From NCBI GenBank assembly GCA_965215275.1, contig OZ244044.1, forward strand, positions 1,504,001 to 1,568,000: 64,000 bases of DNA, written 5' to 3'. Every line of letters starts with the position of its first letter. Position 1 is the first letter of the stretch. Position numbers and translations under genes: made by a program. Below are positions 11,868-36,209 of this stretch, one piece after another. The notes beneath the pieces are model-generated. The model did no database searches. It was not told the origin of the DNA and was given only the letters and a program-made list of their open reading frames with translations. The stretch comes from Thermodesulfobacteriota bacterium (GTDB lineage: Bacteria > Desulfobacterota_D > UBA1144 > Nemesobacterales > JAJCZQ01).

Positions 11868-12060
11868 ATTAAAACTCCTTTCCTTAAAATAAAGATCAGT
11901 CTTGTCCCCTTCAGTTGTGTCGTAAATTCATAAATAGAAGAGTGCATTCTCTATTTCTTTAAAGATAATGAAAAATCCCCGTTTGTTAAGTTATTTTTAT
12001 AATTCCTAAAAACTTTAGGGGACTATCTACTTAAGTATCCCAAATTAAAAAAATAGTTAT

Positions 12061-12234
12061 TTATTTTTTTGGAACTCCTGTCTGAAATCCTCGTATATTT
12101 TCCTGAATATCCGATGTGTCATCTTTCCTTTGTTTTCTTATCTTTTTAACAGGTTTAACAGGAGAGACAACAGCTTTTACTATATCATCAAAAGAACCTG
12201 GTATATGTGGAATTATCTTTTGCTTTCTACCCAT
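12061..12234 (-). CDS. 57-aa basic microprotein of the IS1595 element (not in the ORF track)
   Basis: MGRKQKIIPHIPGSFDDIVKAVVSPVKPVKKIRKQ...; homolog at the same position in the second element. Confidence 0.7.
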   Translation of the reverse strand: MGRKQKIIPHIPGSFDDIVKAVVSPVKPVKKIRKQRKDDTSDIQENIRGFQTGVPKK

Positions 12235-12254
12235 TGGATTATTTTTTCTATTCG

Positions 12255-12857
12255 TTATTTTAGTTCTAGAAACCTACTTATAGCTCTGTCAAAAACATTT
12301 TTTATATCTCTATATGTCCATACAGTTACCATATCAGCATGTTCTGCTGTAGTAGTCCATTTTCTATGTGTTGGATTTTCACGTGTCGGAACAGGAGTAA
12401 GAGTCTTGCCTCTGCGTGGATTATCTATATAATCCTTTATATCTTTTTTTGTCTTTAGTGATAATTGAATAGTAGTAGGTGTAATTCCTAAAAAGATTAT
12501 AAAAGCATAATTATAATTTACTGGTATCCAATTAAATTGATATTTTCGTTTACTATCTAATGAAGCAAGTTTAACTTCTACCCTCTCTGGTGAAGTATTA
12601 TCTTTAAGAGTAACAAGTAAATCTGTATTATTACCGCCTCTTTGTCTTTGTCTACCTACAAATTTATTAACATAACCAAATTTAGACAGCCAATCACTTA
12701 CGATCTTCTCTCCAAAATCTCCTTTTTTAGGATTAGTAATCCGTTGTATATCACCATATGTTCGGTTTTCCCAAACTTGAACTATGCTATCAGATTCCGC
12801 TACTTCTTTTAAAATTTTTATAACATCATTTTGTATTTCTTTATCAAGAAATAACAT
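12255..12857 (-). CDS. Putative type II restriction endonuclease, PD-(D/E)XK fold
   Basis: KGDFGE...TDLLV...EVKLA motif pattern; directly downstream of an MTase. Confidence 0.7.
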   Translation of the reverse strand: MLFLDKEIQNDVIKILKEVAESDSIVQVWENRTYGDIQRITNPKKGDFGEKIVSDWLSKFGYVNKFVGRQRQRGGNNTDLLVTLKDNTSPERVEVKLASLDSKRKYQFNWIPVNYNYAFIIFLGITPTTIQLSLKTKKDIKDYIDNPRRGKTLTPVPTRENPTHRKWTTTAEHADMVTVWTYRDIKNVFDRAISRFLELK

Positions 12858-12865
12858 GTGAGTAT

Positions 12866-14011
12866 TTAATCCATAAATCCAACTTTAATCAACTCATCAT
12901 AAATAATATCTTTTCTTAAACTTCTACTGTTATTTGTAGATGTATGAACTACACTTGCCCAATCATGATTTTTGATAAACTTAAAAACACTTTTCTTTTT
13001 TCTTTTTATTACAATACCATAACCGTCATTGTAAGGTATATCGTAAAAATCCGTTGTGGCTACAGCGGTTTCTCTAGCCCAGAAAGTTCTGGGTAAATAT
13101 ATATCACACTTACCTATCATATTCATACGAGATGGAAAACGAGAAGGTTTGTATGGAATACAGATGTTATAAATATCTACATAAGTCCTACAAGACTTTT
13201 CATTTACAGGTTTATATGAAGAAGGAGTAGATTTTGCCCAAACTTGAAATACGGTTTTAACATTAATTTCTTCTCCATTAGGAAAAATAAAAGGATTATC
13301 GTTAAGTGTTTCTGTATGTAATAATATATATCCCATTTTTATCAATCTGTTTTTGCACGAACCTTTGCCAGTACTATCAAATATTGGAGGAAGTATAAAA
13401 GCTACATAGTCAGCAAATTCAAAAGATTTGACTACAAAATCCAAAGCGATCTTACCGTTTCTGCCAAAAGGAGGATTACCTATAACCACATATTTACCAG
13501 CAGGAGGTTGCCAAGTTAAAAAATCAGCTTGGATAATACCATCAATTAACTTATCAGTAAGTGGGGACTTTTTAGGTTGTATTTCAATCCCTAACCGATT
13601 ATTTTCGGGTAATAGAGAATAAAAATGACCACAACCTGCACTAGGCTCTACAAATGTATAATCTGAAATATCTATATTATATTTATCTAATGTTTTGTAA
13701 AATCTATTTATACAACTTTTAGCTACATCTGGCATTGTGTAGTATTGGTCAGCTTGTTTAATTCCAAGATTATACTCTCCATTTAAATTCAATATCCTTA
13801 ATAGATCGTTTCTATAAAAATCAGGAACTTGTTTTATTCTATCCCATCTGTCCACTGTTCCTTTATGAACAAGTAATAAATCGGCAATTTCTCTATTGCT
13901 TTTACTTTTTTGTAAATGAGCAAAAAGAGATAGTTCATCCATATTACTTGTTTGATATTCATCAAATATACTATCTGGAGTTGTATAAAATATTTCTTCT
14001 AAAGGTAACAT
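12866..14011 (-). CDS. Amino (N6-adenine-type) DNA methyltransferase, gamma motif order, with N-terminal HTH-like segment
   Basis: DQYYT, FVEPSAGCG (motif I), VIGNPPFG (motif IV); SNREIADLLLVHKGTVDRW HTH-like. Confidence 0.85.
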   Translation of the reverse strand: MLPLEEIFYTTPDSIFDEYQTSNMDELSLFAHLQKSKSNREIADLLLVHKGTVDRWDRIKQVPDFYRNDLLRILNLNGEYNLGIKQADQYYTMPDVAKSCINRFYKTLDKYNIDISDYTFVEPSAGCGHFYSLLPENNRLGIEIQPKKSPLTDKLIDGIIQADFLTWQPPAGKYVVIGNPPFGRNGKIALDFVVKSFEFADYVAFILPPIFDSTGKGSCKNRLIKMGYILLHTETLNDNPFIFPNGEEINVKTVFQVWAKSTPSSYKPVNEKSCRTYVDIYNICIPYKPSRFPSRMNMIGKCDIYLPRTFWARETAVATTDFYDIPYNDGYGIVIKRKKKSVFKFIKNHDWASVVHTSTNNSRSLRKDIIYDELIKVGFMD

Positions 14012-14012
14012 T

Positions 14013-14993
14013 TTAACCTATTAACTCCTTATATTTTAATCTTTTACCTTCCAATCTTTTACCTTCCAATCTTTTACCTTCCAATCTTTTAATAACCTTT
14101 TTAATCTGATCCATAGTAGGTAAAGGTCTGTTATTATGCCTTCCAGCATATTCATCTACATAGCGTTGTAGATGTTTCCTGCTCATGAAGTGGTATATCC
14201 CAGTATACCCTCTTTTAAGCATAGACCAGAAACTTTCCATCCCGTTGGTATGTGCCTGTTCCCTGATATATTCACCTACTCCATGATTAACTGTCTTGTG
14301 TTTATACCCTTTCTTGTTCAGTCCACTATACCCTCTGTTCTCGTCTGTATAAATAGTTGATTCAGCATCTACAGTTTTATCTATCAAACCTTCTAATGTT
14401 TTACTATCTACAACTTCAGTTACCTTTGCTTTTACCTTCTTATCTATCCTTGATTTAATACCTACTACTGCAGATTTAGTTTTAGTGCTTCTGCCTTGAG
14501 TCCCTTTAGTTCTATTGGATTGGTGCTTGTTCCTTTCAAGTCCACCAACATAGGTCTCATCAACTTCTACAGGAGATAACAACGGATTATCTGACTGCTC
14601 ATCAAACGATTCTCGTATCCTGTGACCCAAGAACCATGCTGTCTTCTGCGTTACCTCTACATCACTTGAAAGTTTTAAACTTGAAATTCCTTTAAGATTG
14701 GTATTCAGCAAGTAAATAGCCATTAGCCATTTATGAAGTGATATCTTGCTTTTGGCTAATACTGTGTTTGTTCTCACGCTGAAATACTTACGGCAATCTC
14801 TGCATCTGTAAGGCATCGTAGGATGTTTTATTTCTATTGTATTAAAACTTCCACAGTGAGAGCAGTATCTATCCTTACCATCTTTACCCCACTTCTGCTC
14901 CTCAAAACACTTTCTTGCTAATCCCTCATCTGGAAACATTTTAAAAAACTCATACAAACTAACTTTATCTTGTTTCGTTCTTTTTCTCATCAT
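14013..14993 (-). CDS. IS1595-family DDE transposase
   Basis: CSHC/CRDC zinc ribbon, HTH (QKTAWFLGHRIR), VEVDETYVGG, IYTDE, HTNGMESFWSMLKRG, HLQRYVDE. Confidence 0.95.
   Translation of the reverse strand: MMRKRTKQDKVSLYEFFKMFPDEGLARKCFEEQKWGKDGKDRYCSHCGSFNTIEIKHPTMPYRCRDCRKYFSVRTNTVLAKSKISLHKWLMAIYLLNTNLKGISSLKLSSDVEVTQKTAWFLGHRIRESFDEQSDNPLLSPVEVDETYVGGLERNKHQSNRTKGTQGRSTKTKSAVVGIKSRIDKKVKAKVTEVVDSKTLEGLIDKTVDAESTIYTDENRGYSGLNKKGYKHKTVNHGVGEYIREQAHTNGMESFWSMLKRGYTGIYHFMSRKHLQRYVDEYAGRHNNRPLPTMDQIKKVIKRLEGKRLEGKRLEGKRLKYKELIG
14038..14091. repeat. 15-bp tandem repeat (~3.6 copies) encoding KRLEG x3 at the transposase C-terminus
   Basis: AATCTTTTACCTTCC three times plus partial AATCTTTTA. 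Confidence 0.9.
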
Positions 14994-15170
14994 GGATATT
15001 ATACTACCATATATTATTAGTTTTTACAAGTAACTAATTTGAAAGTTTGGATACTTAAGTATATAGTCCCCAAACTTTATAGATAGCTGAGAATGAATTA
15101 ATGTTTTTTTCAATGAGTTTTAAACAGCTTCTGATTTGTCAAAATGACTTATACCACTTGTTAGTTTTTA

Positions 15171-16277
15171 CTAAACTAATATCGCTCTTGCGGTTTGTTG
15201 CTTAACAGGGAAAACGATCTCTTTTTTTTCATTCTGCCACTGAGTGAGCAACATTTTATGTCCGACCTGTAAGCCGGATACTGGCTCAATTTCAAAATTA
15301 CCATAAAAGGTGCAGAACCTGGAATTAGTTACCTTGTACATCAAAACTTCTTCATCAACTGTACCTGTCTCCATAATGAAATTTTCCAGTATTATCCCGA
15401 TATTGAATGACTGTGCCGAAACATAATCGGGGGTCTCGTGGAATTTTTTCCTGTATAGATCAGTAAACTGTCTTGACGTTAACCCGAAGTCGATTTTATG
15501 CTCAACTACTGGTTCCCACTGTGTGACAGAAAAAAATCCTTCAGTTTCTTTTTGCAAGCGATTTTTAAATTCTTCAATTCCTGCTGCTACAAGGCATGAG
15601 CAAAACCCTTTAAGATGCTTTGAAAAGACCAAGTCGTCCTCAAAACGTCCCACTCCCAATACATATTTTATATTTTGCTCTCTAATCCGTTTTACAATAT
15701 CAATGAAGTCTTCCTTTCCACTTCTGTATTTAAAGGTTTGATAATTTATTCCAAGTAGCTTACAAACGTTAACAGCACCTTTTGCGACCTTGGTTGAAAA
15801 GCCACTGTCTTGTGCAAAAACGATTGCTACTGTTTTTATATTTTTATCCCGTTGGTTAATGAAATTAAGGAACGGTTCGAAATAACGACTTGCCAGAGTT
15901 ATTGCCGAGATGACTTTTTTGAACCCGCGACTTGCTATCTCGTCAGATGAACCACCGTAGTTCCAAAGCACCCTATTGTAAAGGTCAGACATTTCAGCAG
16001 CGGCAATGGTCAAGGTGCTTGAGTATGGTCCGAGAAGTATATCAACCTTATCTTCAAGAATTAGTTTTTTGGTAATGTATCTGGTATTGTCAGGGCTGCT
16101 TTCGTCATCGTAGTATATAAGCTGAATTGGAATTTTTTTTGTGTGACTTTCCAACAATATACCACCTGAGCGATTTGTGTTTTCCACCCACAGGTCCAGA
16201 CCGTTGAACGATCTTTTACCCTGTATGGCGTATTTGCCAGATAAGGTTACGGGTAAACCCACCCGAATTTTATTCAT
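15171..16277 (-). CDS. Branched-chain amino-acid ABC-type substrate-binding-fold protein (LivJ-like), no obvious signal peptide
   Basis: IRVGLPVTLSGKYA, LIYYDDES, VDILLGPYSS. Confidence 0.8.
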   Translation of the reverse strand: MNKIRVGLPVTLSGKYAIQGKRSFNGLDLWVENTNRSGGILLESHTKKIPIQLIYYDDESSPDNTRYITKKLILEDKVDILLGPYSSTLTIAAAEMSDLYNRVLWNYGGSSDEIASRGFKKVISAITLASRYFEPFLNFINQRDKNIKTVAIVFAQDSGFSTKVAKGAVNVCKLLGINYQTFKYRSGKEDFIDIVKRIREQNIKYVLGVGRFEDDLVFSKHLKGFCSCLVAAGIEEFKNRLQKETEGFFSVTQWEPVVEHKIDFGLTSRQFTDLYRKKFHETPDYVSAQSFNIGIILENFIMETGTVDEEVLMYKVTNSRFCTFYGNFEIEPVSGLQVGHKMLLTQWQNEKKEIVFPVKQQTARAILV

Positions 16278-16278
16278 T

Positions 16279-17472
16279 TTATGAAAGCAGGCTGACCGCT
16301 TCTTCTATTCTGTCCATGCCTTCTTCAATGTTTTTAAGTGAAGTGGCATAGGATATTCTCAGGAAGTTTTCCTTGCCGAACGCTATACCGGGAACCACGG
16401 CAACTCTGGCGGCTTCCAGTAAGAACTCCGTGAAATCTATTGAGTTGTTTATTGTCATTTCCTTGTATCGTCTGCCGATAAAACCCTCTATGCTTGGAAA
16501 GACATAAAAAGCACCAAGTGGATCAAAACATTGAAAACCCTCTATATTATTAAGCCTCGTGACGATATAGTTTTTTCGGCGCTGGAACTCCTTTGTTCTG
16601 TCCTCTACGACCTTTTGCGACCCGTTAAGCGCTTCTACTGCTGCCATCTGTGCGATCGACGTGGGATTGGAGGTTGATTGACCCTGAAGTTTGGACATTG
16701 CCGATATTACGTCTTTATCTCCTGCCGCGTAACCTATGCGCCACCCGGTCATGGCGTAGGATTTCGATACGCCGTTTACAAGTATCGTGGATTTTTTCGC
16801 TTCTTCGCTGATAGTGGCGATCGGTGTGTGTTTTATATCGTTGTAAACTATTTTTTCATAGATCTCATCGGAAATTATCGTAAGGTTATTTTCAAGGCAT
16901 ATATCGGATATTACCTCTATCTCGTCCTTGTTGTAAGTGGAACCGGTGGGGTTGTTGGGATAGTTCAGGATGATCGCTTTTGTTTTTTTACTGATCTTCT
17001 TTTTCAGGTCTTCCGGCCTGATCTTGAATTTATTGTCCACGGAGGTTTCCAGAATTACCGGATTGGCTCCGGCAAGGAGTATCTGATCGGGATAGGAGAC
17101 CCAGTAGGGTGATGGAACTATTACCTCATCTCCCCCTTCAAACAGTGCCAGTGAAAGGTTGTACAGTACGTGTTTTGCTCCGCACGATACCGTAATTTCC
17201 TCTTTTTTATACACAAGACCGTGTTCATTCTTTAAGCGGTTGATAACTGCTTCCTTTAACTCGTCGATCCCTCCAACGGCCGTGTATTTTGTAAAACCGT
17301 TCTGAATTGCCCTGATAGCTTCTTCCTTTACATTGTGAGGCGTATCAAAATCCGGTTCACCGGCGCCAAATCCTATAACGTCTATTCCTTCCGATCTCAT
17401 TTGTTTGACTTTTGTCGTTGTGGAAAGCGTTGCCGATGGTTTAAGTTCCATAACTCTTTTTGAAAGTTTCAT
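16279..17472 (-). CDS. aspC: Aspartate aminotransferase (class I PLP enzyme)
   Basis: GAGEPDFDTP, NYPNNPTG, SDEIYE, GVSKSYAMTGWRIGY. Confidence 0.88.
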   Translation of the reverse strand: MKLSKRVMELKPSATLSTTTKVKQMRSEGIDVIGFGAGEPDFDTPHNVKEEAIRAIQNGFTKYTAVGGIDELKEAVINRLKNEHGLVYKKEEITVSCGAKHVLYNLSLALFEGGDEVIVPSPYWVSYPDQILLAGANPVILETSVDNKFKIRPEDLKKKISKKTKAIILNYPNNPTGSTYNKDEIEVISDICLENNLTIISDEIYEKIVYNDIKHTPIATISEEAKKSTILVNGVSKSYAMTGWRIGYAAGDKDVISAMSKLQGQSTSNPTSIAQMAAVEALNGSQKVVEDRTKEFQRRKNYIVTRLNNIEGFQCFDPLGAFYVFPSIEGFIGRRYKEMTINNSIDFTEFLLEAARVAVVPGIAFGKENFLRISYATSLKNIEEGMDRIEEAVSLLS

Positions 17473-17486
17473 TGTTTATATCCTTT

Positions 17487-17966
17487 TTATTGAAGTTTTT
17501 CTTTCAACTTTGCCTCTACTATATCAGGTACAAGGTGTTTAGCGGAACCTCCAAGCGTAATGATCTCTCTGATAAGTGATGAACTTATGTGTGAGAACTT
17601 GCTGTCGGTTACCATGAATACGGTTTCGATCGCGGAGCTCAAGGTCTTGTTCGCGTTTGCCATCTGCATTTCATATTCAAAGTCGGACACTGATCTCATA
17701 CCTCTCAGAACGATCCTGGTTCCCGCTCTTTCCACGTATTCAACCAGCAGGCCCTCGAAACTGTCCACCTGGACGTTTTCCTGACCTTTGAATATCTCCT
17801 TGATTATTGCAACTCTTTCATCAGTGGTGAAAGTTGTTTTCTTGGACACGTTACGAGCAACTGCAATTAGTGTCTTGTCAAAGATCCTGGATGCTCTTTC
17901 TATGATGTTCAGATGTCCTAAGGTGAACGGGTCAAAAGACCCGGGATATATTACGGTTTTTCCCAT
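17487..17966 (-). CDS. coaD: Phosphopantetheine adenylyltransferase
   Basis: YPGSFDPFTLGH, RGMRSVSDFEYE, ISSSLIREI. Confidence 0.97.
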   Translation of the reverse strand: MGKTVIYPGSFDPFTLGHLNIIERASRIFDKTLIAVARNVSKKTTFTTDERVAIIKEIFKGQENVQVDSFEGLLVEYVERAGTRIVLRGMRSVSDFEYEMQMANANKTLSSAIETVFMVTDSKFSHISSSLIREIITLGGSAKHLVPDIVEAKLKEKLQ

Positions 17967-18511
17967 TAATTTACGCTCCAGAAAAAACTGATATTTGTAC
18001 CACCGTAGTTTTTTGTATCAAGGATGAATTTCGGGTCTGAGTATTCAAACGACTGATCGTGTTCTACTACTACCGTTCCATGTTCGTTCAGCAGACGATC
18101 GATGTTCGATACAAGGTCAGGAACGTTTAAATTCCTGTACAGGTTATAGGGCGGGTCTATAAATATCAGGTCAAATTTCCTGTTTTCTCTGATAAGTTTT
18201 TTAACGGCTTTATTGAAGTCGTCAACGACCGTCTTGCTCAGCTTCTCAAATCCGCAGCTTTTGATGTTATCCCTCAGCGTTCTTGCCGTTGTTCTTTGCT
18301 TTTCAACGAAGGTTGCTTCAGATGCGTTCCTGCTCAGAGCTTCGATCCCGAGACTGCCTGATCCTGAGAACAGATCCAGCACAGAAAGACCTTCCAGGTT
18401 GCCAAGCCTGTCAAATATGGATTTCTTGACCCTGCTGGTGGTTGGTCTTATGCTTCCGTTCTTTGGTATTTTCAACTTTCTGCCTTTTGCCGTTCCCGTC
18501 TGAACTCTCAT
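17966..18511 (-). CDS. rsmD: 16S rRNA m2G966 methyltransferase
   Basis: RPTTSRVK, LDLFSGSGSLGIEALSR, FIDPPY; rsmD-coaD synteny. Confidence 0.92.
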   Translation of the reverse strand: MRVQTGTAKGRKLKIPKNGSIRPTTSRVKKSIFDRLGNLEGLSVLDLFSGSGSLGIEALSRNASEATFVEKQRTTARTLRDNIKSCGFEKLSKTVVDDFNKAVKKLIRENRKFDLIFIDPPYNLYRNLNVPDLVSNIDRLLNEHGTVVVEHDQSFEYSDPKFILDTKNYGGTNISFFWSVN

Positions 18512-18624
18512 CTCAACTTATATATCATAGCATATTTGTTTGGCAAAATGAGGCGATTATAAAAAGATGTTTTATGATTAACTTTTAGCTGTCTTGGGCA
18601 TATTAGCTATGTAATAATATACTT

Positions 18625-18864
18625 ATGCTAACTCTTGGTTTCAAAGGAAAATCAATCATTTATTCACACCACTTGACTGTTACTTCAAGAACAAATCGCT
18701 GAAAATACCTTACGCCGAAAGGCAATAATCCATCGCTTGACGATAATCTTCATGCTATCAGAGCTTTGCTACTGTGTTACACGGGGAAGATGAGTTGTAT
18801 ACATTAATATTCGTACAACACCTGCAACGAGGACTGGGTCTATAACGACAATGTGAACAGCTAA
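18625..18864 (+). pseudogene. Remnant of a type III R-M Mod (DNA methyltransferase) N-terminus
   Basis: Fragments MLTLGFKGKSIIYSHHLTV...SLDDNLHAIRALL..YTGKMSCIH*..YNTCNEDWVYNDNVNS* resemble the Mod N-terminus (GDNLxxLK...IDPPYNTGNxxWxYND), with deletions and stops. Confidence 0.65.
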
Positions 18865-18994
18865 GTTGCTGGATTAAAGATGATTACTGCGCAGAGAGAA
18901 CGGACCATTATAGTCAGTTCGATGATGTTTTCAAATGTCTGTTAAAAGATTGTAAAATAATAATAAAAGCCACAAATGGCCAAGGAGAATTATT

Positions 18995-19777
18995 ATGATG
19001 GGAACCGAAGCAATACAGCGATCTTTCAAAGAATCTGTTGCCAAGTCAGTGGAACTCTTTCCGGAGGGAGAAGATCGCTATAAGGTATTTACCCCTTTTC
19101 ATTTTGATGATGGTGATCACTTTGTAGTTGTTTTGAAGCAAGAACCACCCGGAAACTGGATTATAACGGATGAAGGACATACATATATGCACATGAGTTA
19201 CGATGAGAGTCTGTCTTCTTTCAACAGCGGAAACCGGAACCAAATTATCGAAAACGCTCTGGAAAAACATGGCGTAAAAGAGACTGAAGGGAAACTTTTT
19301 GCTCCAATTAATGAGATGACCGGTGCTGGCAACGTTCTCTACGACTTTATTCAGTGCCTTATCCAAATAACCGATGTTTCCTATCTCAGCCGTGAAAGAG
19401 TAATATCCACGTTTAAAGAAGATTTCAAACGTTTTATGGAAGAATCCGTTCCGGGAGAGAGATTACAATTTGATTATATAGAAGAAAGAAACGACCCCGA
19501 TGGGAAATATAAAGTGGACTGCCGGATCAACGGCATGGATCGTTCCTTACACGTATACGCAATAACGGGTAACGAGAAATGCATCTATACAACGATCAAC
19601 ATTCTTCAACATCAAAGCTGGAATTTGTCTTTTCTAAGTCTGGGGATCTTTGAAGATCAAGAGCAGATCAGCCGCAAAGCCTTGTCTCGTTTTACAGATG
19701 TTTGCGACCGGCAATTTTCCAGTTTGGCGATTAATAAAGAAAAGATCAAGGAATTCCTTGAAGAACAAATGAAGTAA
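18995..19777 (+). CDS. DUF1828-like protein
   Basis: TPFHFDDGDHFVVVL...WIITDEGHT pattern; RBS AGGAG. Confidence 0.65.
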   Translation: MMGTEAIQRSFKESVAKSVELFPEGEDRYKVFTPFHFDDGDHFVVVLKQEPPGNWIITDEGHTYMHMSYDESLSSFNSGNRNQIIENALEKHGVKETEGKLFAPINEMTGAGNVLYDFIQCLIQITDVSYLSRERVISTFKEDFKRFMEESVPGERLQFDYIEERNDPDGKYKVDCRINGMDRSLHVYAITGNEKCIYTTINILQHQSWNLSFLSLGIFEDQEQISRKALSRFTDVCDRQFSSLAINKEKIKEFLEEQMK

Positions 19778-22917: not shown

Positions 22918-22957
22918 AGAAAAACAGTTTAACTGCGTATTTTATATGAGGCTGAAG

Positions 22958-26070: not shown

Positions 26071-26177
26071 AGCTTTATATACAGGGGTCTGCTTGCAACT
26101 GGACTGACTTCATTTAGAATAGTATGCCTGATCCAGTACATATCCAACCTTAGGTCTCTGTACAGGAATAATGATAC

Positions 26178-28640
26178 ATGAAGAAGGAATATAAACCACA
26201 GAATATAGAATCAAAGTGGCAGGATGAATGGGAAAAGCGGAAGGTGTATAAAGTGGACGAGGTCCCTGATAAAGAAAAATATTACGTTCTTGAAATGTTT
26301 CCCTATCCTTCCGGCAGAATTCACATGGGACACGTAAGGAATTACACTATAGGGGACGTTGTTGCACGTTATAAAAGGGCACAGGGGTATAACGTTCTTC
26401 ATCCGATAGGATGGGACGCTTTTGGTCTGCCTGCCGAGAATGCAGCTATACAGAACGGGGTACATCCTGCCAAATGGACCTATGAAAATATTTCTCAGAT
26501 GGGCAGACAGCTTAAAAGGCTCGGATTTAGCTACGACTGGTCAAGAGAAATTGCAACCTGTGACCCCGATTATTACAGGTGGGAGCAGTGGCTTTTCACA
26601 AAACTTTATGAGAAAGACCTGGTTTATAAGAAAACCTCTTATGTGAACTGGGACCCAGTTGATCAGACGGTACTTGCTAATGAGCAGGTCATTGATGGCA
26701 AAGGCTGGAGGTCAGGAGCCGTCGTTGAGAGAAAAGAAATCCCGCAGTGGTTTTTAAAGATCACTGACTATGCCGAGGAGTTACTGACCGATATAGAGAA
26801 GTTGCCGGGATGGCCGGACGCCGTTAAAACAATGCAGTCTAACTGGATAGGCAGATCAGTGGGGATCGAGGCATTGTTCAGAATTGAGGAACTGGATTAT
26901 GACCTGATGATATTTACCACTCGTCCTGACACGATAATGGGGGTTACCTATCTTGCCGTTGCCCCGGAGCATCCTCTTGCGAAAAAGGTCGCGGAAAAAA
27001 ATAGTGAAGTATCTGAGTTTATCGATGAGTGCACCAGGTCTGCTTTTTCTGAATCTGATATGGATGCCGTGGAGAAAAAAGGACTGAATCTTGACGTTGA
27101 GGCGGTTCATCCGGTAAGCGGGGACAGCATCCCTGTGTACGTTGCTAATTTTGTGTTAATGAACTACGGTACCGGTGCCGTTATGTCGGTTCCCGGTCAT
27201 GATCAGAGAGATTGGGAATTTGCAAGGAAGTATGGACTTCCCGTAAAGCAGGTCGTTTATCCAAAGAACGGCACTGAGTTCAGTATCGAAGAAGGAGCGT
27301 TCATTGAAAAAGGGATATTGCAAAACTCCGGCCAGTTCGATGGACAGACTTCCGAAGAGGCTTTTGAATCAATAGCGGAGTATCTGGAAAAAGAAGGAAA
27401 AGGAAGGAAAAAGTTAAACTATCGTCTCAGGGACTGGGGGATCTCAAGGCAGAGATACTGGGGAGCACCGATACCTGTTGTTTATTGTGATAAATGCGGT
27501 GAGATCCCGGTTCCGGATGATCAGTTACCCGTTAAGCTGCCAATGGATATCGACGTACAGGGAAGTCAGATCCCCTCTCTGTCAAAGATAGAGGATTTTA
27601 AAAAGACCGAATGTCCAAAATGTAAAGGCAAGGCTCAAAGAGAGACCGACACCATGGATACGTTCGTTGAGTCTTCGTGGTATTTTTTCCGTTATGTCTC
27701 CCCTGAATATAGAAAGGGGATGTTTGACGGGAAAAAGGTTGATCACTGGCTTCCCGTTGACCAGTACATTGGAGGTATAGAGCATGCGATACTTCATCTG
27801 CTTTACTCCAGGTTTTTCACAAAGGTTATCAGGGACCTTGGATTGATCGACCTGGATGAACCTTTTAAAGATCTTTTAACTCAGGGAATGGTAATAAAAG
27901 ATGGTGCAAAAATGTCCAAGTCGCTGGGCAACGTTGTTGATCCGGACGATATGATAGAAAAGTACGGGGCCGATACTATAAGGGTCTTTATGCTTTTTGC
28001 CTCTCCTGTTAACAGGGACCTTGAGTGGAGCGACGAAGGGATCGAAGGAAGTTTCAGGTTCCTGGGAAGGGTCTGGAGATTGATCCAGAATGCTACAGGG
28101 CAAATTCCCCCGGCTACCTGTGAGCCTTCCGACCTTGATCAGTTATCCAAGGAGGCAGGCCTTCTTTTGACCAAGACCCACAGAACAGTAAAAAAGGTAA
28201 CTCAGGACTTTGATAGATTTCAGTTCAACACCGCTATTGCGGCAATGATGGAACTGGTAAACGAACTTTACAAGATGGAATTAAAAAATGACATCGACAG
28301 GGCGGTTTTCAGATTTTCGGTTAAATCGCTGATAAGGATGCTGTATCCCATAGCACCTCACATTGCCGAGGAACTGTGGCAGATAATGGAAAATGAGAAC
28401 GACCTTGTTGATACCGAATGGCTCAGATGGGAGGAATCGCTGACCCAGTCCGATGAAATAAGCGTAGTTATTCAAGTCAATGGCAAGGTAAGGAACCATA
28501 TAAGTATATCCTCGGATTGCGACAGGGAGGAGATGGAGCAGGCGGCACTGAACGATGACAAGGTACAGAGATATATAAAAGGTAAACAGGTCCGCAGAGT
28601 AGTGGTAGTGCCTAAAAAACTCGTTAATGTCGTTGTTTAG
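26178..28640 (+). CDS. leuS: Leucine--tRNA ligase
   Basis: [36 protein letters not shown]. Confidence 0.98.
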
Positions 28641-28799
28641 GAGCTGAGAGTTGCAAAGGCGCAGTTGCTGATTACTAAGAAGATGAAGTATGATGGGCAG
28701 TATACGTAAAGATTGGAAATTATATACAATAGTAAACAAGGTATCAACGGGAACAGTATAACGTGTAGAGATAGTCAAGGTCTTCACTTGATAAACCGG

Positions 28800-29510
28800 C
28801 AGTTTGATTTATGGAGATGTTCGCTGGTGAGAGATCAGTGGGAAAACGGTTTGAAAGGCCGTTGTGTAGAGACGGGAGATATTGGCGTCATTGCGTCAGT
28901 GTCCGAAGTGGCAGTATAACAGCAACGGGCAATATATCGTTCAGGAAAAGGTTATTGGCAATATACCTGATAACTGCAGACTTAAAGGTATTATCCGGTC
29001 GTAAAACGGGAAGGTATACGGGAACTGTGCAAAGACAACTTGGTTTTGCTGCACGGGACAAGAAAGGCGTTTGAAGAGTAGTCAGATAATCCCTTACTGT
29101 CTCCAACAGAGGCAGGTGAAGTTCTATGTTGGCGGGGGTGGAAAAGAACGAACATGCCAGTAAAGCAAAGGAGGGAATACAAGGGAGAAGCACAAAGGAA
29201 AAGTCATCATCAGCAGGTATAAGATTAGGAGCAGACAGGAGGGTCAGGGTAAAGGCAACTGAAGCCATAAAAAGTGAGGCATCATAAGGTATGACGGACG
29301 GAAGTGCAGGTCTATATCAAAAGGGCAGAAAGTTTCCGGTCCGCGTTGCAAGAGATTTTGCAGGCGTGTATCACAAGATGTCAGGGAAACGTTTACAAAG
29401 ATGTACAGATGAGCATGCAGGAAGGCGTAACAACGGAGCATTACCGACCGTGGATCAGATCAAAGACGTGATCAGGGGATCGTGTGGCAAGAGAGATCAG
29501 ATACTGCTGA
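28800..29510 (+). pseudogene. Decayed IS1595-family transposase
   Basis: Collinear frameshifted fragments FMEMFAGE, SVRSGS..ISFRKRLLAIYL, SDNPLLSP, QGRSTKEKS, GVYHKMSGKRLQRCTDEHAGRRNN..LPTVDQIK match the intact transposases in this window. Confidence 0.85.
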
Positions 29511-29569
29511 TGAATGGTCCGTGTATCCTGAATATCTTTATCATTGAAAAACAGAGAAAGAAGTTATAC

Positions 29570-29598
29570 TTGACATTACATCAGAACGGAAGTAAAAT
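29570..29598 (+). promoter_or_regulatory. sigma70-type promoter of paralog 2
   Basis: TTGACA, 17-nt spacer, TAAAAT; ATG 29605 is 7 nt after the -10 box. Confidence 0.7.
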
Positions 29599-29604
29599 AT
29601 AAAA

Positions 29605-32600
29605 ATGTATGAAAAACATGATGGACTCTATCCCCCCCCCCCCCGTCAATATAGTAGTTTAACGGGCAGTTCCCGCCGGAACGGCAGGAACCTTGTACTT
29701 TCCCTTGTCCTTTTTCTTCTGTGCATAATGATCACTGTTGCAGAGGGACAGGACAGCGTAAATGATCCGTTCTCCGAATGCAGGGTTATCAGTGCAGACG
29801 CGGAAGATCCGCTGTACGGATGTCAGTGGCATCTGAAGAACACGGGGCAGCTTGGTTTTTCCGGAAAAGCAGTAACAGCAGGAGAAGATATAAACGTAGA
29901 GGGAGTGTGGAACGAAGACGTATATGGTTCTGGAATTAACGTAGCAATAGTAAGTGACGGTATTGACCTTTCACATGAGGACCTTTCTGCTAAGGTCCGT
30001 TCCGGACTGAACTGGAGTTATTTTGAAAGAAATAATTCTGAAGAGAACAGTTCTGAAAAATATAATTCAGAAAGAGATGATCATTCAGACGGTTCATCCT
30101 TTACCGGAACACGAGCGGCAGGAGTAATTGCAGCAACTGGATATAACGGACTGGGAGTAAGAGGAACAGCACCTGGTGCGAGTATATACAGTTACAGGTT
30201 ATCCGGTGATCTCAGTGAAGCTGACGCAATGGTCCGTAATAAAGAAATAACCGCTGTATCGGTTAACGGCCGGGTATCTGAGGACGGAGCTTTTTTTCAG
30301 GAGGCTTCATCTGTCTGGGAAGAAGGATTGGATACGGGAATAAGGGAAGGGTTTTATGGGAAAGGTGTGTTTTACGTCTGGGGAGCAGGGGACGGTCACG
30401 AGAATAACGATCAGGCTAATTTTAATGAATATTCCAGCTATTACGGAGTAACAGCCGTTTGTTCAACGGACGGCTTTGGAAAGAAGAGTATATTTTCAGA
30501 AGAGGGAGTAAATCTCTGGGTATGTGCACCTGGTTCTGATATTGTGACCACAGATAACAACAACGATTACGTTGTAACATCCGGAACTGTCCTTTCAGCT
30601 TCACAGGTTGGAGGAGTGGCTGCACTGCTGAGAGAGGTTAATGGAAATCTGAGCTGGAGGGATATAAAGCTTATACTTGCGGGTTCAGCAAGGCAGAACG
30701 ACGTTTCTGACATGAGCTGGGAGACTGGAGCGGTTAAATACGGTTCTGACGTGGAAAGATATAATTATAATCCTAAGTATGGTTTTGGCGTGGTAGACGC
30801 AGAAGCAGCCGCAGAGCTTGCCGGAAGCTGGAAAGGCATCGGAGAGATGAGGACCATTACAGCTTCTTCCGATAATGAACTGACAATTCCTGATGGAGAA
30901 GGAGAAGCAGATGGAATACTTACCTCCACACTTGTGATACCGGACGTGGAGGAAATATTTACGGAATTCGTTGAGGTAGAACTTGTTTTTTCTCATGACC
31001 GCTTGCAGGACCTTGATATAAAAATAACCTCTCCTTCCGGGACAGTTTCTGAACTTGTCCGGGAATTTTCAGGTGAGGAAGAAGACGCTGAGATCAGTTA
31101 TGTAAGAAGAACACATCGTTTCGGGTCGGCTAAACACCTCGGAGAAGACCCTTCCGGTGAATGGACCCTTGATATATCCGATACTGCTTCCGGAGATGAA
31201 GCAGATGAAGAAAATACTTTTACCTTACACTCCTGGAGCATTAAGGTATACGGGAATTTTTATCAAGGACCTGGCAGGGAGATAACTACTAAAGCTTTAA
31301 ATTGGGGCGGACAGACAGTTCAGGATCAGGTGTACAGAGTAGGAACTCAGATAGCACCGTTACAGCTGCCTGAGGCGACCGGGGCAGAAGGAATAACGTA
31401 CAGTATGACACCTGATTTACCTGCTGGGCTGGAGTTTAACGATACCACCCGGGTTATAAGCGGAACCCCAACTAAATCGCAGTCTAATGAACGTTATCAA
31501 ATTGTTGCCAGAGACGAAAATGGAAACGTGAAGGGTTTAGCGTTCCATATAAGGGTAAGGTTCCGTAACTCCACAATACCGAGTTTCAGCGATACCATCC
31601 CGGATCAGAACTACGTAACGGGGAGAGAAATAACGCCACTGGTGTTCCCTAGTGCAACGGGAGGGGATGGTCAGTTAAGGTACACTTTTAACGGCACTTT
31701 AACTAACTTACCAAATGGATTGAGACTTACCAGTGATCCGTTCAGGATAAGAGGAACACCAGGTAGTGGTAGTGCGGGGACAAGTACCTGGCAATATACC
31801 GCTACTGACTCAGACGGGGATACTGCTACACTTGAGTTCAGGATAAGGATAAAAGCTGCAGCTGACGTTCCGAGCTTCGGCGGTCAGATGATAGATGATA
31901 AGTTTTATACGGCAATGGTTCAAATATCACCATTCACGCTACCTCTTGCAACGCAAGGAACTGGAATTACACTCAGGTTAACCCCTAATTTACCTGATGG
32001 ATTGAATTTTAACTTTGTCACCCAAGTGATAAGCGGAACACCAACTGCTGCGATGCCTAAGACTGATTATACATGGAGAGCAACGGACAGAGACGGATAT
32101 ACGGCTGAATTGACGTTCAGTATAACGATAACGGCCCTGTCCTTTGACGGGCAGGTACCTTCTTCTCCTGTTTTGTACTTGGCGGAGAGACCAGTAACAC
32201 CGTTAACACTGCCTGCTGCAACGGGAGGTACTGCTCCGTATACTTACGTTCTGACCCCTGAATTACCTGATGGACTGGACTTTAACGATACCACCAGAGT
32301 TATAAGCGGGACACCGACTGCTGCAACGCCCGTGAATACCTATACGTATACCGTTACAGACGCAGACGGAACTGAGACGGAGGTGACGTTCGATATTGCC
32401 GTAGCAGCACACTTTTCAGGCGTTGAGATAGAAAGCAGGTTTTACACGGTCGGTACGGCGGTAACGGAAACGCTGCCCGAGGCAATCGGACATAACGGAA
32501 CGGTAACGTACAGTTTAACTCCTGCCCCTCCTGCTGAATTGACCTTTACCCCTGCCACCCGGGTTATAAGCGGAACACCGACTGCTATACAGAAGAATGC

Positions 32601-33426
32601 GAGGCTTTATACGTATAGTGCTGCTACCGGTGCAGGTGTACCTGCTCGAACGTTGGTGTTCCATATCACGGTAAGAGATGAACCGGACACAAGGCCGAGT
32701 TTCGGCGGTGAGACGGTAGAAGATAAGGAATACATAATATCGGGAAGTCCGATAACCCCGTTCGTGCTGCCTGAGGCAACGGGAGGGAATGGAACGGTAA
32801 CATACAGTCTGACTCCTCGTTTACCAGACGGATTGATCTTTACGCCTGTTGATCGAGAGACAAGCGGGACACTGACTGCTGCGATGTCTGAGACCGATTA
32901 TACGTGGAGTGCCACGGACGAGGATAACGACAGGGCTGGGTTAACGTTCAGTATAACGGTGGAAGAGGACAGCGAACCGGCATTCAGCGTGACGACGATA
33001 GAAGATCAGGTGTACACGGGGGAAAGAATAAGGCTGCCGGTAGCAACGGGAGGGAACCCGCCGTTAAGATACAGTATAGATCCTCGTTTACCGACGGGAA
33101 TGAGATTGAACGAAGACACAGGGGTCATAAGCGGGACGCCCGCGAGTGCGTCACCTGCAACTTCTTACACGTACACGGTAACGGACAGGAATGGAGACAT
33201 GAAAGGGTTGACTTTCAGGCTCAGTGCAGAGGTTTCTTCTACTCCAGGACCAACAACAGGAAGACCAGGAACGTCAGGTAGTGATTCAGGCGGAGGTGGA
33301 GGAGGATGTGCCGTCTCAGATCAGAGCAGCACTGCTTCTGATATTCCCGGAGTAATTGCATGTCTGATACTTATTCCTGTATCAGTAGTGATAAAAAGGA
33401 AGAGAAGATCTCAGATAAAGACTTAG
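29605..33426 (+). CDS. Surface protein paralog 2: signal peptide, inactive S8 kexin-like domain, P-domain, 7 Ig-like repeats, GGGC-TM-basic tail
   Basis: DPLYGCQWHL, VAIVSDGID, TGTRAAG, GTVLSAS, YGFGVVDA; repeats with ISGTPT; GGGGGGCAVS...CLILIPVSVVIKRKRR. Confidence 0.9.
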   Translation: MYEKHDGLYPPPPRQYSSLTGSSRRNGRNLVLSLVLFLLCIMITVAEGQDSVNDPFSECRVISADAEDPLYGCQWHLKNTGQLGFSGKAVTAGEDINVEGVWNEDVYGSGINVAIVSDGIDLSHEDLSAKVRSGLNWSYFERNNSEENSSEKYNSERDDHSDGSSFTGTRAAGVIAATGYNGLGVRGTAPGASIYSYRLSGDLSEADAMVRNKEITAVSVNGRVSEDGAFFQEASSVWEEGLDTGIREGFYGKGVFYVWGAGDGHENNDQANFNEYSSYYGVTAVCSTDGFGKKSIFSEEGVNLWVCAPGSDIVTTDNNNDYVVTSGTVLSASQVGGVAALLREVNGNLSWRDIKLILAGSARQNDVSDMSWETGAVKYGSDVERYNYNPKYGFGVVDAEAAAELAGSWKGIGEMRTITASSDNELTIPDGEGEADGILTSTLVIPDVEEIFTEFVEVELVFSHDRLQDLDIKITSPSGTVSELVREFSGEEEDAEISYVRRTHRFGSAKHLGEDPSGEWTLDISDTASGDEADEENTFTLHSWSIKVYGNFYQGPGREITTKALNWGGQTVQDQVYRVGTQIAPLQLPEATGAEGITYSMTPDLPAGLEFNDTTRVISGTPTKSQSNERYQIVARDENGNVKGLAFHIRVRFRNSTIPSFSDTIPDQNYVTGREITPLVFPSATGGDGQLRYTFNGTLTNLPNGLRLTSDPFRIRGTPGSGSAGTSTWQYTATDSDGDTATLEFRIRIKAAADVPSFGGQMIDDKFYTAMVQISPFTLPLATQGTGITLRLTPNLPDGLNFNFVTQVISGTPTAAMPKTDYTWRATDRDGYTAELTFSITITALSFDGQVPSSPVLYLAERPVTPLTLPAATGGTAPYTYVLTPELPDGLDFNDTTRVISGTPTAATPVNTYTYTVTDADGTETEVTFDIAVAAHFSGVEIESRFYTVGTAVTETLPEAIGHNGTVTYSLTPAPPAELTFTPATRVISGTPTAIQKNARLYTYSAATGAGVPARTLVFHITVRDEPDTRPSFGGETVEDKEYIISGSPITPFVLPEATGGNGTVTYSLTPRLPDGLIFTPVDRETSGTLTAAMSETDYTWSATDEDNDRAGLTFSITVEEDSEPAFSVTTIEDQVYTGERIRLPVATGGNPPLRYSIDPRLPTGMRLNEDTGVISGTPASASPATSYTYTVTDRNGDMKGLTFRLSAEVSSTPGPTTGRPGTSGSDSGGGGGGCAVSDQSSTASDIPGVIACLILIPVSVVIKRKRRSQIKT
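29632..29644 (+). repeat. poly-C tract (C13) at the 5' end of paralog 2
   Basis: 13 consecutive C; in frame from ATG 29605, out of frame from ATG 29609. Confidence 0.9.
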
Positions 33427-33642
33427 CAGTGCGGTCCTTTCAAAGGCATTTCTGAGAAAGAATTACAGCCCGGTTTTCTTTTATATCAGTTATCAGTTCG
33501 TTGAAGAGAATGAATGTATTGCCGTGTGTTGAACCGTCTTGATATTCTGAACGGGTTGAAAGAACGGGACGAACGATCTCTGAACTGAGAAATTCATTAC
33601 TACGGAAAAATAAGGGGATTATATAGTTAAGTGCCGAAACCA

Positions 33643-33810
33643 CTATTTCTTTACTTTCGTGGTATTCCCTTTTGATTTTTTACTGTTTTGTTTTTTTATC
33701 TTCCGAACTTTATCATAATTAGGTTGTAATAATGTCTTTACTACTTCGTCCACTGTAGCTGGTATGTGTGAAATAAAGCTGTTTTTATAAGTTTTATCTT
33801 TTTCTGTCAT
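33643..33810 (-). CDS. 55-aa basic microprotein of the IS1595 element (not in the ORF track)
   Basis: MTEKDKTYKNSFISHIPATVDEVVKTLLQPNYDKVRKIKKQ...; stop 3 nt from the TIR; homolog of 12061-12234. Confidence 0.7.
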   Translation of the reverse strand: MTEKDKTYKNSFISHIPATVDEVVKTLLQPNYDKVRKIKKQNSKKSKGNTTKVKK

Positions 33811-33820
33811 TTTATCTATC

Positions 33821-34309
33821 CTATCTCGGATAAATTATAGTTCCCTTAGATTTAGCCCATCTTTCAGTAAACCCTACATGTGATATATCATTACTACTTC
33901 TATCCAGTTGTCTTTCTGTTTCTTTAACTACTATTTCTGGTTCTAATTCATATATTACTTTTACTCTTGTCTGATCATATTCATAAAAAATAGCTAAATA
34001 TATTTTACTATTTCTCCTTATACGATTTAGAGATTCCTGTCTTTTATCAGGAGGAGATTTAAACATCCTGTCTAACTGACCCGTGCCACCTTCCTTACAA
34101 GACAAATATTCATAAACTATATTATGATCTTTAAAATCTCTGGCATCTGCATCTCTTTTACTGTGTATAAGTTCATGTCCCAATAAATCAGCTATTATCA
34201 TCTCTTTAACTAATCCAGGTTGTAGTAAATTATATATACCCATTGATTTGGCAAGATCAGCTGCTTTTAACACTAAATCTATTATCCTGCGATAGATGTT
34301 AGATGCCAT
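33821..34309 (-). CDS. PvuII-like type II restriction endonuclease
   Basis: Size and motifs DLAKSMGIYNLLQ, DARD..YEYLS, IYELEP, KGTIIY parallel R.PvuII as recalled (DLALKHGINDIFQ, DAVD..YELKS, IYRLEP, HGTKIY); overlaps the MTase 3' end. Confidence 0.72.
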   Translation of the reverse strand: MASNIYRRIIDLVLKAADLAKSMGIYNLLQPGLVKEMIIADLLGHELIHSKRDADARDFKDHNIVYEYLSCKEGGTGQLDRMFKSPPDKRQESLNRIRRNSKIYLAIFYEYDQTRVKVIYELEPEIVVKETERQLDRSSNDISHVGFTERWAKSKGTIIYPR

Positions 34310-35088
34310 TCTATCTCCTCTTTATATTCTGAATTTATTCTGGATCTAGATAAATCAATATATCTATCATTAATTTCAAAAGCTATAAAATCCCTTTTGT
34401 AATTTTCACATACTACAGCTGTAGTTCCTACACCTGAAAATGGATCAAGCACAACATCACCTTCATTAGAACTTGCAAGAACTAATCTTTCTATTAACTT
34501 CTCTGGCTTTTGTATGGTATTAAGAAGTTCTCTTGATATTAACTCTTTTGATTTATAGGTTAATTGTTTAACATCTCCCCATACATCACCTGGATTCTTG
34601 CCTTTAGTATTAAACTTAGTTTTATTAAATTTTCCATTAGTTACAGAGGGAACATTTTCACATCTTTGTCTATGTGTTAGTTCTACTAACTGTGGAACTC
34701 TGATATCATCTAAATTAAAACATTTTGCTTGTTTACCTTTAACAAAGTAATAGATAATATCGTAATTGTTTGTGTATTTTAGTTTACCTTGAGATAACCT
34801 GCTTGGCTGGTACCATATTATTTTAGATTTACAGTTTAAATATTTTCTATAATCTACAAAATCCAAACAATCAGGTTTACCGAACAAATATAAAGTTCCG
34901 CCTGTTTTTAATTTAGGTTCAAATTTCTTTAACAGATTAAGATTAAACTTTTGAATACTTGGAATACGGTCCCAATCATTATCAGTAACTCCGTAAGGAC
35001 CATCACATATAATTAAGTCAATAGATTTATCGTCTACTTTCTTGATTAAATCTAACGCATCCCCACAGTAAAATTCGTTTAATTTCAT
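34282..35088 (-). CDS. Beta-class N4-cytosine/N6-adenine DNA methyltransferase
   Basis: IDLIICDGPY (motif IV variant), GKNPGDVW, QKPEKLIERLV, VLDPFSGVGTT (motif I). Confidence 0.92.
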   Translation of the reverse strand: MKLNEFYCGDALDLIKKVDDKSIDLIICDGPYGVTDNDWDRIPSIQKFNLNLLKKFEPKLKTGGTLYLFGKPDCLDFVDYRKYLNCKSKIIWYQPSRLSQGKLKYTNNYDIIYYFVKGKQAKCFNLDDIRVPQLVELTHRQRCENVPSVTNGKFNKTKFNTKGKNPGDVWGDVKQLTYKSKELISRELLNTIQKPEKLIERLVLASSNEGDVVLDPFSGVGTTAVVCENYKRDFIAFEINDRYIDLSRSRINSEYKEEIEWHLTSIAG

Positions 35089-35090
35089 TT

Positions 35091-36029
35091 CTAACTGATC
35101 AATTCTTTGTATTTAAGATGCTTACCTGACAAACCTTTAATAACTTTTTCGATCTGATTCATAGTATGTAAAGGACGGATGTTATGCCTGCCCGCATACT
35201 CATCTACATAGCGTTGTAGATGTTTCCTGCTCATGTAGTGGTATATCCCAGTATGTCCTCTTTTCAGCATAGACCAGAAACTTTCCATCCCGTTGGTATG
35301 TGCCTGTTCCTTGATATATTCACCTACTCCGTGATTAACTGTCTTGTGTTTATACCCTTTTTTATTCAGTCCACTATATCCTAAATTCTCATCTGTATAG
35401 ATCGTTGATCCGTCTTGAACTGTTTCCTTAATCATATTTTGCAGTTCATCCTTCTTAACGGTTTCTGTTACTTTTGCTTTAACCTTCTTATCTACTCTTG
35501 ACTTAATACCTACTACGGCAGATTTAGTTTTAGTACTTCTGCCCTGTGTTCCCTTCACTTTTTTACTGGCATGCTTGTTTCTCTCAAGTCCGCCAACATA
35601 AGTCTCATCCATCTCTATTGGTGACATTAAAGGATTATCTGATTGCTCGTCAAATACCTTCCTTATTCGGTGTCCTAAATACCAGGCTGTCGTTTGAGTA
35701 ACTCCTATATCTCTTGCCAACTTATGACTGGATACTCCCTTTAAGTTGGTAGTCATCAAATATATAGCTAATAACCATTGATGCAAAGATAAATTACTAC
35801 CTTCAAATACAGTGCCTGTTCTGACACTAAATCGTTTATCACAATCTTTACACCTATAAGGCATGGTAGCATGTTTAGCTTTAGAAGTTCTTACACTTCC
35901 ACAACGAGGGCAACATTTATACTCATTATCTTCACCCCAGAGCATCTTCTCAATATGTTTTCTTGCTGATTCCTCGTCTGGAAACATTTTATTAAAATCA
36001 TATAAACTAACTTTTTTTCTATGTGCCAT
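35091..36029 (-). CDS. IS1595-family DDE transposase
   Basis: CPRC/CKDC zinc ribbon, IEMDETYVGG, IYTDE, HTNGMESFWSMLKRG. Confidence 0.95.
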   Translation of the reverse strand: MAHRKKVSLYDFNKMFPDEESARKHIEKMLWGEDNEYKCCPRCGSVRTSKAKHATMPYRCKDCDKRFSVRTGTVFEGSNLSLHQWLLAIYLMTTNLKGVSSHKLARDIGVTQTTAWYLGHRIRKVFDEQSDNPLMSPIEMDETYVGGLERNKHASKKVKGTQGRSTKTKSAVVGIKSRVDKKVKAKVTETVKKDELQNMIKETVQDGSTIYTDENLGYSGLNKKGYKHKTVNHGVGEYIKEQAHTNGMESFWSMLKRGHTGIYHYMSRKHLQRYVDEYAGRHNIRPLHTMNQIEKVIKGLSGKHLKYKELIS

Positions 36030-36209
36030 TTACTTCTCCTTCGTTTATCTTATGGTAAAATCTTACCATTTTTAACTTGATAAATCAAGTCATTTTCGGC
36101 ACTAAACTATATTGTTCCCTAAGTTATATATGTGATCTTCTGAATATCCCGTTTGCTAAAGTATATTACTCCCTAAAGATTTAACAGGAATATCCCTGCT
36201 CCGTTTCTT

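Follow-up and report, generated by a model that had tools for sequence, protein, structure and literature searches.

Two IS1595 transporter insertion sequences with unrelated methylase and predicted restriction nuclease genes at one position in a Thermodesulfobacteriota genome

The window analyzed here, the whole 64,000-nucleotide stretch spanning positions 1,504,001 to 1,568,000 of contig OZ244044.1 from a Thermodesulfobacteriota bacterium (host genome 1.99 Mb, 42% GC), contains two insertion sequences (IS) of the IS1595 family, E1 (12018..15071, minus strand, 3054 bp, 32% GC) and E2 (33614..36119, minus strand, 2506 bp, 33% GC), which are organized as transporter IS (tIS). Both are arranged as terminal inverted repeat (TIR), transposase, methyltransferase (MTase), nuclease, microprotein, and TIR, with all genes on the minus strand, and recomputed open reading frames (ORFs), TIRs, and spacing confirmed this order and the positions given by an original prediction made from the DNA alone. 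E1 encodes a 326-aa IS1595 DDE transposase with a short tandem repeat near its C-terminus (14013..14993), a 381-aa gamma-class amino-MTase with a weak N-terminal helix-turn-helix (MTase 1; 12866..14011), a 200-aa PD-(D/E)XK nuclease that is a putative restriction endonuclease (REase) (nuclease 1; 12255..12857), and a 57-aa backbone microprotein (12061..12234). One nucleotide separates the transposase stop from the MTase ATG, followed by gaps of 8 nt between MTase and REase and 20 nt between REase and microprotein, whose stop lies 43 nt short of the element end. E2 encodes a 312-aa IS1595 DDE transposase (35091..36029), a 268-aa beta-class N6/N4 MTase with a DGPY motif (MTase 2; 34282..35088), a 162-aa PvuII-fold nuclease (nuclease 2; 33821..34309), and a 55-aa microprotein (33643..33810); here the MTase ATG lies 2 nt past the transposase stop, the MTase and REase genes overlap by 28 nt, and the microprotein stop is 29 nt short of the element end. 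The predicted 1–2 nt junction and the placement of the microprotein against the far TIR thus hold in both elements.

The 23-bp TIRs of E1 agree at 22 positions (microprotein end, 12018..12040, plus strand; transposase end, 15049..15071, minus strand) and are flanked by a perfect 8-bp target duplication, AAACTTTA (12010..12017 and 15072..15079), as had been predicted. The 26-bp TIRs of E2 (33614..33639, plus strand, and 36094..36119, minus strand) also agree at 22 positions. Its flanks agree at only four of eight and so form no target duplication, and none of the other TIRs listed for the genome carries a flank matching those of E2. The TIRs of both elements start with GG, and the ends fit the consensus GGnnATTAT, which we take to be that of the ISNwi group, an assignment that is provisional. 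Contigs assembled from sequencing runs of other studies cross both E1 junctions (run X5 both, run X6 the right one) and the microprotein-side junction of E2 (X5) with zero differences, so the bridged junctions are not assembly artifacts; no piece among those listed spans the transposase-side junction of E2.

The two transposases, each a single gene, match Pfam DDE_Tnp_IS1595 (E = 7e-42 for E1 and 3e-42 for E2) and score above the NCBIfam IS1595 cut-off (NF033547, 194 bits against 75). Residues D141, D213, E249, and K256 are invariant across 58 homologues, and a zinc ribbon (PF12760, cut-off 25.4 bits) is detected at 32.3 bits in the E2 protein and falls below the cut-off at 19.8 bits in that of E1, where both CxxC motifs are present. 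Near the C-terminus of the E1 transposase, an in-frame 15-nt tandem repeat triples a GKRLE-type motif (14035-14100).

The identification of the cargo ORFs as MTases and restriction-type nucleases was supported by profile (PADLOC, Pfam) or by fold (PvuII). In MTase 1 the motifs follow the gamma order, with motif I at residue 122 and NPPF at residue 179, and the protein matches PADLOC MTase_II (E = 4e-45). MTase 2 follows the beta order, with DGPY at residue 29 ahead of motif I at residue 215, and matches Pfam N6_N4 (E = 1e-38); its similarity to M.MboIIA (E = 1e-29) exceeds that to M.PvuII (E = 3e-6). Neither the two MTases nor the two nucleases have significant similarity to each other, in line with the prediction that the cargoes are unrelated. 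Nuclease 1 matches PADLOC REase_II weakly (E = 1.5e-5) and has an intact D...ExK site, D79 and E94-V-K96 being invariant across 16 homologues; the top fold matches of its model (predicted local distance difference test score, pLDDT, 84) are PD-(D/E)XK nucleases (EcoRV, SPARDA), these being weak, with a best E value of 2e-3 and none below 0.001. The nuclease 2 model (pLDDT 93) matches PvuII (Foldseek E = 2e-8, TM about 0.7), and its family comprises 1363 unannotated proteins. Searches of PDB sequences gave no match at E up to 1 for either nuclease, Pfam and NCBIfam held no family for either nuclease or either microprotein, and an Atlas search yielded 'hypothetical protein' clusters alone (0.90-0.91), its recognition score being below threshold.

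Both methylase-nuclease pairs have relatives elsewhere. The E2 pair occurs with no IS nearby in a genome of another phylum (G155; 69% and 62% identity), the E1 pair sits after an IS1595 transposase fragment in G127, and an MTase 1 homologue sits after an IS1595 transposase in G120, a locus retrieved through its nuclease homologue. Because the pairs recur in these three genomes, such restriction-modification (R-M) cassettes also occur apart from the IS and are spread over more than one phylum. A further nuclease 1 homologue, in G136, has no MTase 1 match within 7.5 kb. Searches for nuclease 2 gave nothing among plasmids or in 119 other genomes of the phylum, and of 40 IS-bearing genomes 39 lacked a match. 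CAGCTG is only mildly depleted (0.84), and the analysis of palindrome avoidance identified no target sequence. Runs X4 (at lower depth) and X5 contain another allele of the E2 R-M genes, with about 92-93% identity over 33927-35014, which suggests another carrier in the same communities.

Across the host genome (coordinates prefixed C1), 23 transposase matches (E below 1e-40) and 19 matches to a microprotein profile were found, from which 13 distinct two-ended elements were called, seven of them empty and six loaded. The empty elements, such as C1:436372-437613 (8/8 duplication) and C1:1980608-1981848, consist of TIR, transposase, microprotein, and TIR, and in the empty sisters closest to E2 the microprotein ATG lies 1 nt past the transposase stop. 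Cargo lies between transposase and microprotein in E1, E2, and two further elements, E3 (C1:1304051-1307389; TIR 25/25, duplication 8/8) and E4, and in two others an MTase-HNH gene follows the small ORF. The nuclease calls in E3 and E4 are by-eye motifs with no profile match. E1, E3, and E4 have perfect target duplications. E4 is inserted in an MTase-Mrr gene, and since deleting it together with one duplication copy restores a 477-codon open frame, this loaded element transposed as a unit. A fifth unit, E5 (C1:779976-781519), is an R-M cassette from which almost all of the transposase has been lost; what remains are the TIRs, the final codons of the transposase gene, an MTase, a REase_II match, and a degenerate microprotein. 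MTase genes lie within 2.5 kb of TIR-like motifs in 11 of 22 cases (random mean 4.8, maximum 12 in 2000 draws), a proximity that is only suggestive because the motif list missed some ends.

Comparison of E2 with E3 places unrelated cargo behind nearly identical transposases. The transposases are 95% and the microproteins 88% identical, against only 29% for the MTases, and DNA identity is lost at the transposase stop and picks up again 3 nt ahead of the microprotein ATG (AAA-ATG). Within the transposase gene, differences are concentrated at the 3' end (42/873 in the body, 30/156 in the last 155 nt; maximum chi-square 43, reached in 0/2000 permutations). Informative sites joining E2 with E3 outnumber those joining E3 with E4 by 207 to 16 in the body and are nearly even with them at the tail (23 against 21), and E3 and E4 have approximately 45 nt in common past the transposase stop. 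The transposase genes of E1 and E2 contain a 170-nt patch that is 94% identical against a background of 73.5% (approximate bounds in E1, 14133..14303, minus strand) and that is likely the product of gene conversion. The tail mosaic of E2, E3, and E4 and this patch together indicate that element copies recombine, and the cargo end of E3 likely arrived with a piece of the transposase gene of another, E4-like element. By eye, the post-stop segment common to E3 and E4 (C1 near 1306360 and 1003076) contains a sigma-70-like TTGACT-17-TATAAG upstream of unrelated cargo.

A census beyond this genome drew on 197 sources, comprising 174 loci from other genomes and metagenomes and 23 own-genome windows, and is biased in that the peptide seeds were taken from the E2 transposase. 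A credible TIR pair was found in 106 sources, reduced to 94 elements after 12 same-cargo duplicates (8 loaded) were dropped; the other 91 had no TIR pair or a rejected one (contig ends, other end types, most gut-metagenome loci). Perfect 8-bp duplications flank 68 of the 94 elements, and cargo is present in 80 of the 81 from other genomes. These 81 carry methylase or R-M genes (21, with a recognized restriction-type nuclease domain in 10), P63C (17), BstA (12, all full-length matches to PADLOC PDLC02356 at E below 1e-109), RhuM (6, one of which was scanned with PADLOC and matches candidate PDC-S05), KilA-N (3), SocA-like antitoxins (3), and other cargo (18). The exact layout of transposase, R-M genes, and free far-end microprotein recurs in 4 of the 81, and in other clades the cargo is placed after the microprotein or fused to it.

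Among the 36 loaded pairs whose transposase DNA is at least 85% identical, pairs that are related rather than independent and fall in four clades, 28 share at most 10% of their post-transposase DNA, and three of the four clades show unrelated cargo. The trio L082/L089/L101, for example, with 92-94% identity, carries KilA-N, MTase-HNH, and SocA cargo. The predicted fixed slot with swappable contents is therefore borne out by the E2/E3 difference, by these close pairs, and by the variety of cargo across elements. Loaded elements also move: an element with a putative MTase, an Eco29kI-like REase, and a far-end microprotein (L063/065/066) and a methylase-carrying element (L076/078/106) each occur as three 100% identical copies with unrelated flanks, and one such trio, of a methylase-nuclease element, occupies different sites of one other genome. 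Together with the gene split by E4, this agrees with the earlier expectation that loaded elements move as units.

The E1 and E2 microproteins are 42% identical over 33 aa, and the motif of the microprotein is about I-x-P-I-D-A-T-F-D-E-V-V-x-A. A hidden Markov model (HMM) seeded on six proteins of the host genome detected it in 62 of the 94 elements, always on the transposase strand, and had 0 matches in 1635 reversed sequences. Of the 81 outside elements, 42 have the microprotein fused to the N-terminus of their first cargo protein, 11 have it as a free gene at the far end, and 3 have it in another place; it went undetected in the remaining 25, some of which carry diverged small ORFs or leaders visible by eye. 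The fused gene begins exactly at position -8 relative to the transposase stop in 34 of the 42 fusions. To judge from its codons, the microprotein is under purifying selection (core ratio of nonsynonymous to synonymous polymorphism, pN/pS, 0.37 when free and 0.26 when fused; codon position 3 most variable), and at least 198 clusters of a 50% identity library match its profile, mostly small proteins or N-termini. The motif distribution, the purifying selection, and the cluster matches mark it as a backbone gene rather than cargo. An origin as a split-off transposase C-terminus was considered and was not supported, as the motif ends no transposase-sized protein among the 150 of 198 matches listed and no transposase domain was found in the 45 longer matches scanned. 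Other IS1595 lineages of the host genome (C1:396221-397537, 540452-541769, 1100815-1102101, 675417-678070) have different, HMM-negative terminal small ORFs, one type of which has, by eye, a similar I-D-T-T-P-Q-x-L-A-x-A-I core.

We consider it reasonably probable that E1 and E2 are IS1595 tIS in which a methylase and a predicted restriction nuclease occupy the junction between transposase and microprotein, are translated in step with the transposase, are carried along when the element jumps, and are swapped between diverged copies. The basic form is inverted repeat, transposase, microprotein gene, and inverted repeat, and the junction past the transposase stop would act as an expression site that tolerates insertions. 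Cargo expression may be coupled to that of the transposase, as suggested by the 1-2 nt gaps or short overlaps that are also seen in empty elements, and loaded elements would transpose normally with their cargo. Cargo could pass between diverged copies residing in one cell through homologous recombination or gene conversion, with the 3' end of the transposase gene as one arm and the microprotein with the right TIR as the other. Cargo, often of defense-related families, might be retained because of the protection it gives the host or because it renders the element addictive. First capture is most simply viewed as a rare illegitimate event whose survivors keep expression and the microprotein. A further proposal, that the microprotein is a transposase-docking regulator and an N-terminal tag on cargo (BstA, P63C, RhuM, methylases), so that a widespread two-gene IS1595 subgroup would form a minimal mobile defense platform, with one cassette that is reshuffled among copies and tied physically or translationally to transposition, is speculative, and we would sooner doubt it than adopt it.

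Several observations weigh against this interpretation. For function, the nuclease 2 family has an invariant leucine at the usual position of the catalytic lysine (E67-Y-L69 in place of E-x-K), and the equally invariant K51 may take over its role. Two own-genome cargoes look impaired: the E3 MTase loses its reading frame at a G9 run close to the gene start (L205, C1 near 1306215-1306225), a candidate phase-variable switch or assembly error, and the putative nuclease frame of E4 (about 270 codons) has no canonical start in its first ~100 codons. Scans for promoters and for terminators in E1 and E2 were at chance level. For mobility, E2 gives no sign of its own transposition, as it has imperfect TIRs and no target duplication, and no empty-site joint of E1 or E2 was present in the five runs searched. 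At the syntenic site of the relatives G001 and G002, E1 is absent, but these sequences have diverged too far for the 8-mer to be recognized. For exchange, the share of close pairs with different cargo is inflated by the removal of the 12 same-cargo copies, cargo is partly stable within clades (L137/L139, a HaeIII-like clade, and a C5-MTase + Vsr clade keep theirs), and only 23-45 nt of TIR are common to the right side in some cases, where homologous exchange is hard to explain.

An alternative is that E1 and E2 are ordinary tIS, each cargo having been captured independently by illegitimate events, with the slot being simply the only place that spares transposase, microprotein, and TIRs. Such a process fits the varied placement of cargo, which can precede the microprotein, follow it, or be fused to it and is sometimes encoded on the opposite strand, as well as the 18 unclassified cargoes among 81, and passenger-bearing IS1595 elements are established (PMC3129680, PMC5704250). 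It does not, however, predict the E4-like transposase tail and post-stop DNA of E3 or the converted patch common to E1 and E2, and we regard it as unlikely. That the lineage is specialized to take up and disseminate complete, active R-M systems, as the original prediction held, is less likely again. A methylase is present in all six loaded own-genome elements with a full-length transposase gene, E5 has kept its R-M genes between TIRs, and R-M-type cargo is the largest single class, but 60 of the 81 outside elements have none, the exact layout is confined to the four already mentioned, and the closest outside relatives (L033, L113, L191) bear non-R-M cargo. R-M status moreover changes at least 13 times on a tree of 89 transposases (built after excluding five elements with short or broken transposases, and with no shuffle control), and the claim of a lineage dedicated exclusively to R-M is contradicted. 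The nearly gene-precise junctions (stop, 0-2 nt, ATG, with identity resuming at AAA-ATG) and the recurrent -8 start of fused genes could instead point to an integron-like mechanism, in which a specific site would be used by the transposase, possibly together with the microprotein, to take up and release cassettes. This we judge very improbable, for no integrase or other recombinase is present among 142 cargo proteins, junction alignments show no common recombination site, and the E2/E3 breakpoint falls 60-155 nt inside the transposase gene.

Other features of the window and genome were recorded alongside. A decayed remnant resembling a miniature inverted-repeat transposable element (MITE) of another IS1595 lineage, with a TIR at about 11618-11640 and a degenerate small ORF, lies between tRNA-Ala and E1 (11223-11640); its site holds a HicAB-like pair (by eye) in G002 and is nearly empty in G001, and these differing contents mark it as variable. 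Adjoining E1 is a 74-aa GIY-YIG-like ORF (11643-11867, minus strand; weak T5orf172 match, E 0.024). E2 lies immediately beside a 929-aa UvrD-family helicase (36210-38999, minus strand), whose GajB-model matches span the helicase core only, and near a 1273-aa S8-protease-like surface protein with repeated domains (29605-33426, plus strand), at whose C-terminal tail reads of many paralogues accumulate. About 15 units of the host genome (C1:155905-157223, 202418-203706, 714634-715929, 735945-737502, 1616480-1618027, 1624687-1626004, and others) are bounded by the same IS1595-type TIRs, in many cases with perfect 8-bp duplications, and contain only a TnpB-like gene, with no transposase; Pfam OrfB_IS605 and Cas12f1-like_TNB were matched in the four scanned, and at least three TnpB lineages are represented. 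Three further TIR pairs with 7-8/8 duplications (C1:17470-21955, 1028600-1033127, 1897941-1900957) enclose host-like genes for TPR proteins, an ABC ATPase, and a large protease, and are possibly composite units formed from MITEs.

If the interpretation of E1 and E2 as tIS with exchangeable cargo is correct, a 1.2-kb insertion sequence would serve as an exchangeable defense hotspot across phyla, able to carry R-M pairs, BstA-family proteins, and toxin-antitoxin genes both within a genome and from one genome to another. The slot would provide a simple address at which to look for new defense genes, the unclassified cargoes being candidates, and the unannotated IS1595 backbone gene is also found as a leader on many cargo proteins. 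BstA, an abortive-infection family described from prophages, is found here inside an IS and fused to the microprotein leader. Nuclease 2 resembles R.PvuII (PDB 1NI0, 1PVI, 1F0O) in fold and in its adjoining beta-class MTase, and differs from it in having about 20% identity, no Pfam match, and E-x-L for E-x-K.

Siguier, Gagnevin and Chandler reportedly described IS1595-family tIS in 2009, among them MTnSag1/tISSag10 and tISCpe8, the latter said, going by a paper title, to carry a lincomycin resistance passenger. In the available portions of three further sources, IS1595 tIS with passenger genes inside their TIRs are established (PMC3129680, PMC5704250, PMC8101967), and the accessible part of a fourth adds nothing on passengers (PMC12561309). 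E1 and E2, with passengers unrelated to transposition inside their TIRs, are members of the tIS as defined in PMC3129680, and resemble known members in having a single DDE_Tnp_IS1595 transposase with a zinc ribbon, TIRs of about 25 bp, passengers, and, in E1 but not in E2, an 8-bp duplication. They differ in that no second backbone gene, fixed exchangeable position, or defense-biased cargo is described for known tIS in those portions; the literature search, which did not extend to ISfinder or to the primary IS1595 paper, where methylase passengers may be listed, likewise returned nothing on a fixed defense-biased IS1595 slot or on the microprotein.

Inverted repeats enclosing R-M genes, together with an 8-bp target duplication, have also been reported, and the part of that study available describes a Neisseria unit with 26-bp repeats and a likely inactivated transposase-like gene, as well as the replacement of one R-M gene by an IS1016 transposase (Furuta, Abe and Kobayashi, 2010; PMC2853133). 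E5 is such a non-autonomous cassette. The 2010 units are not assigned to autonomous IS1595 elements in that part of the paper, whose supplements may hold more cases. E1 and E2 differ in having an intact transposase, in coexisting with empty and differently loaded sisters, and in breakpoints that can be mapped. Elements of this kind are offered as autonomous candidates for mobilizing those units. Cargo-carrying IS1595 elements and TIR-flanked R-M genes are thus already known, and what E1, E2, and their relatives add is a mapped exchange, a defense-biased cargo, and a second gene that is either free or fused.

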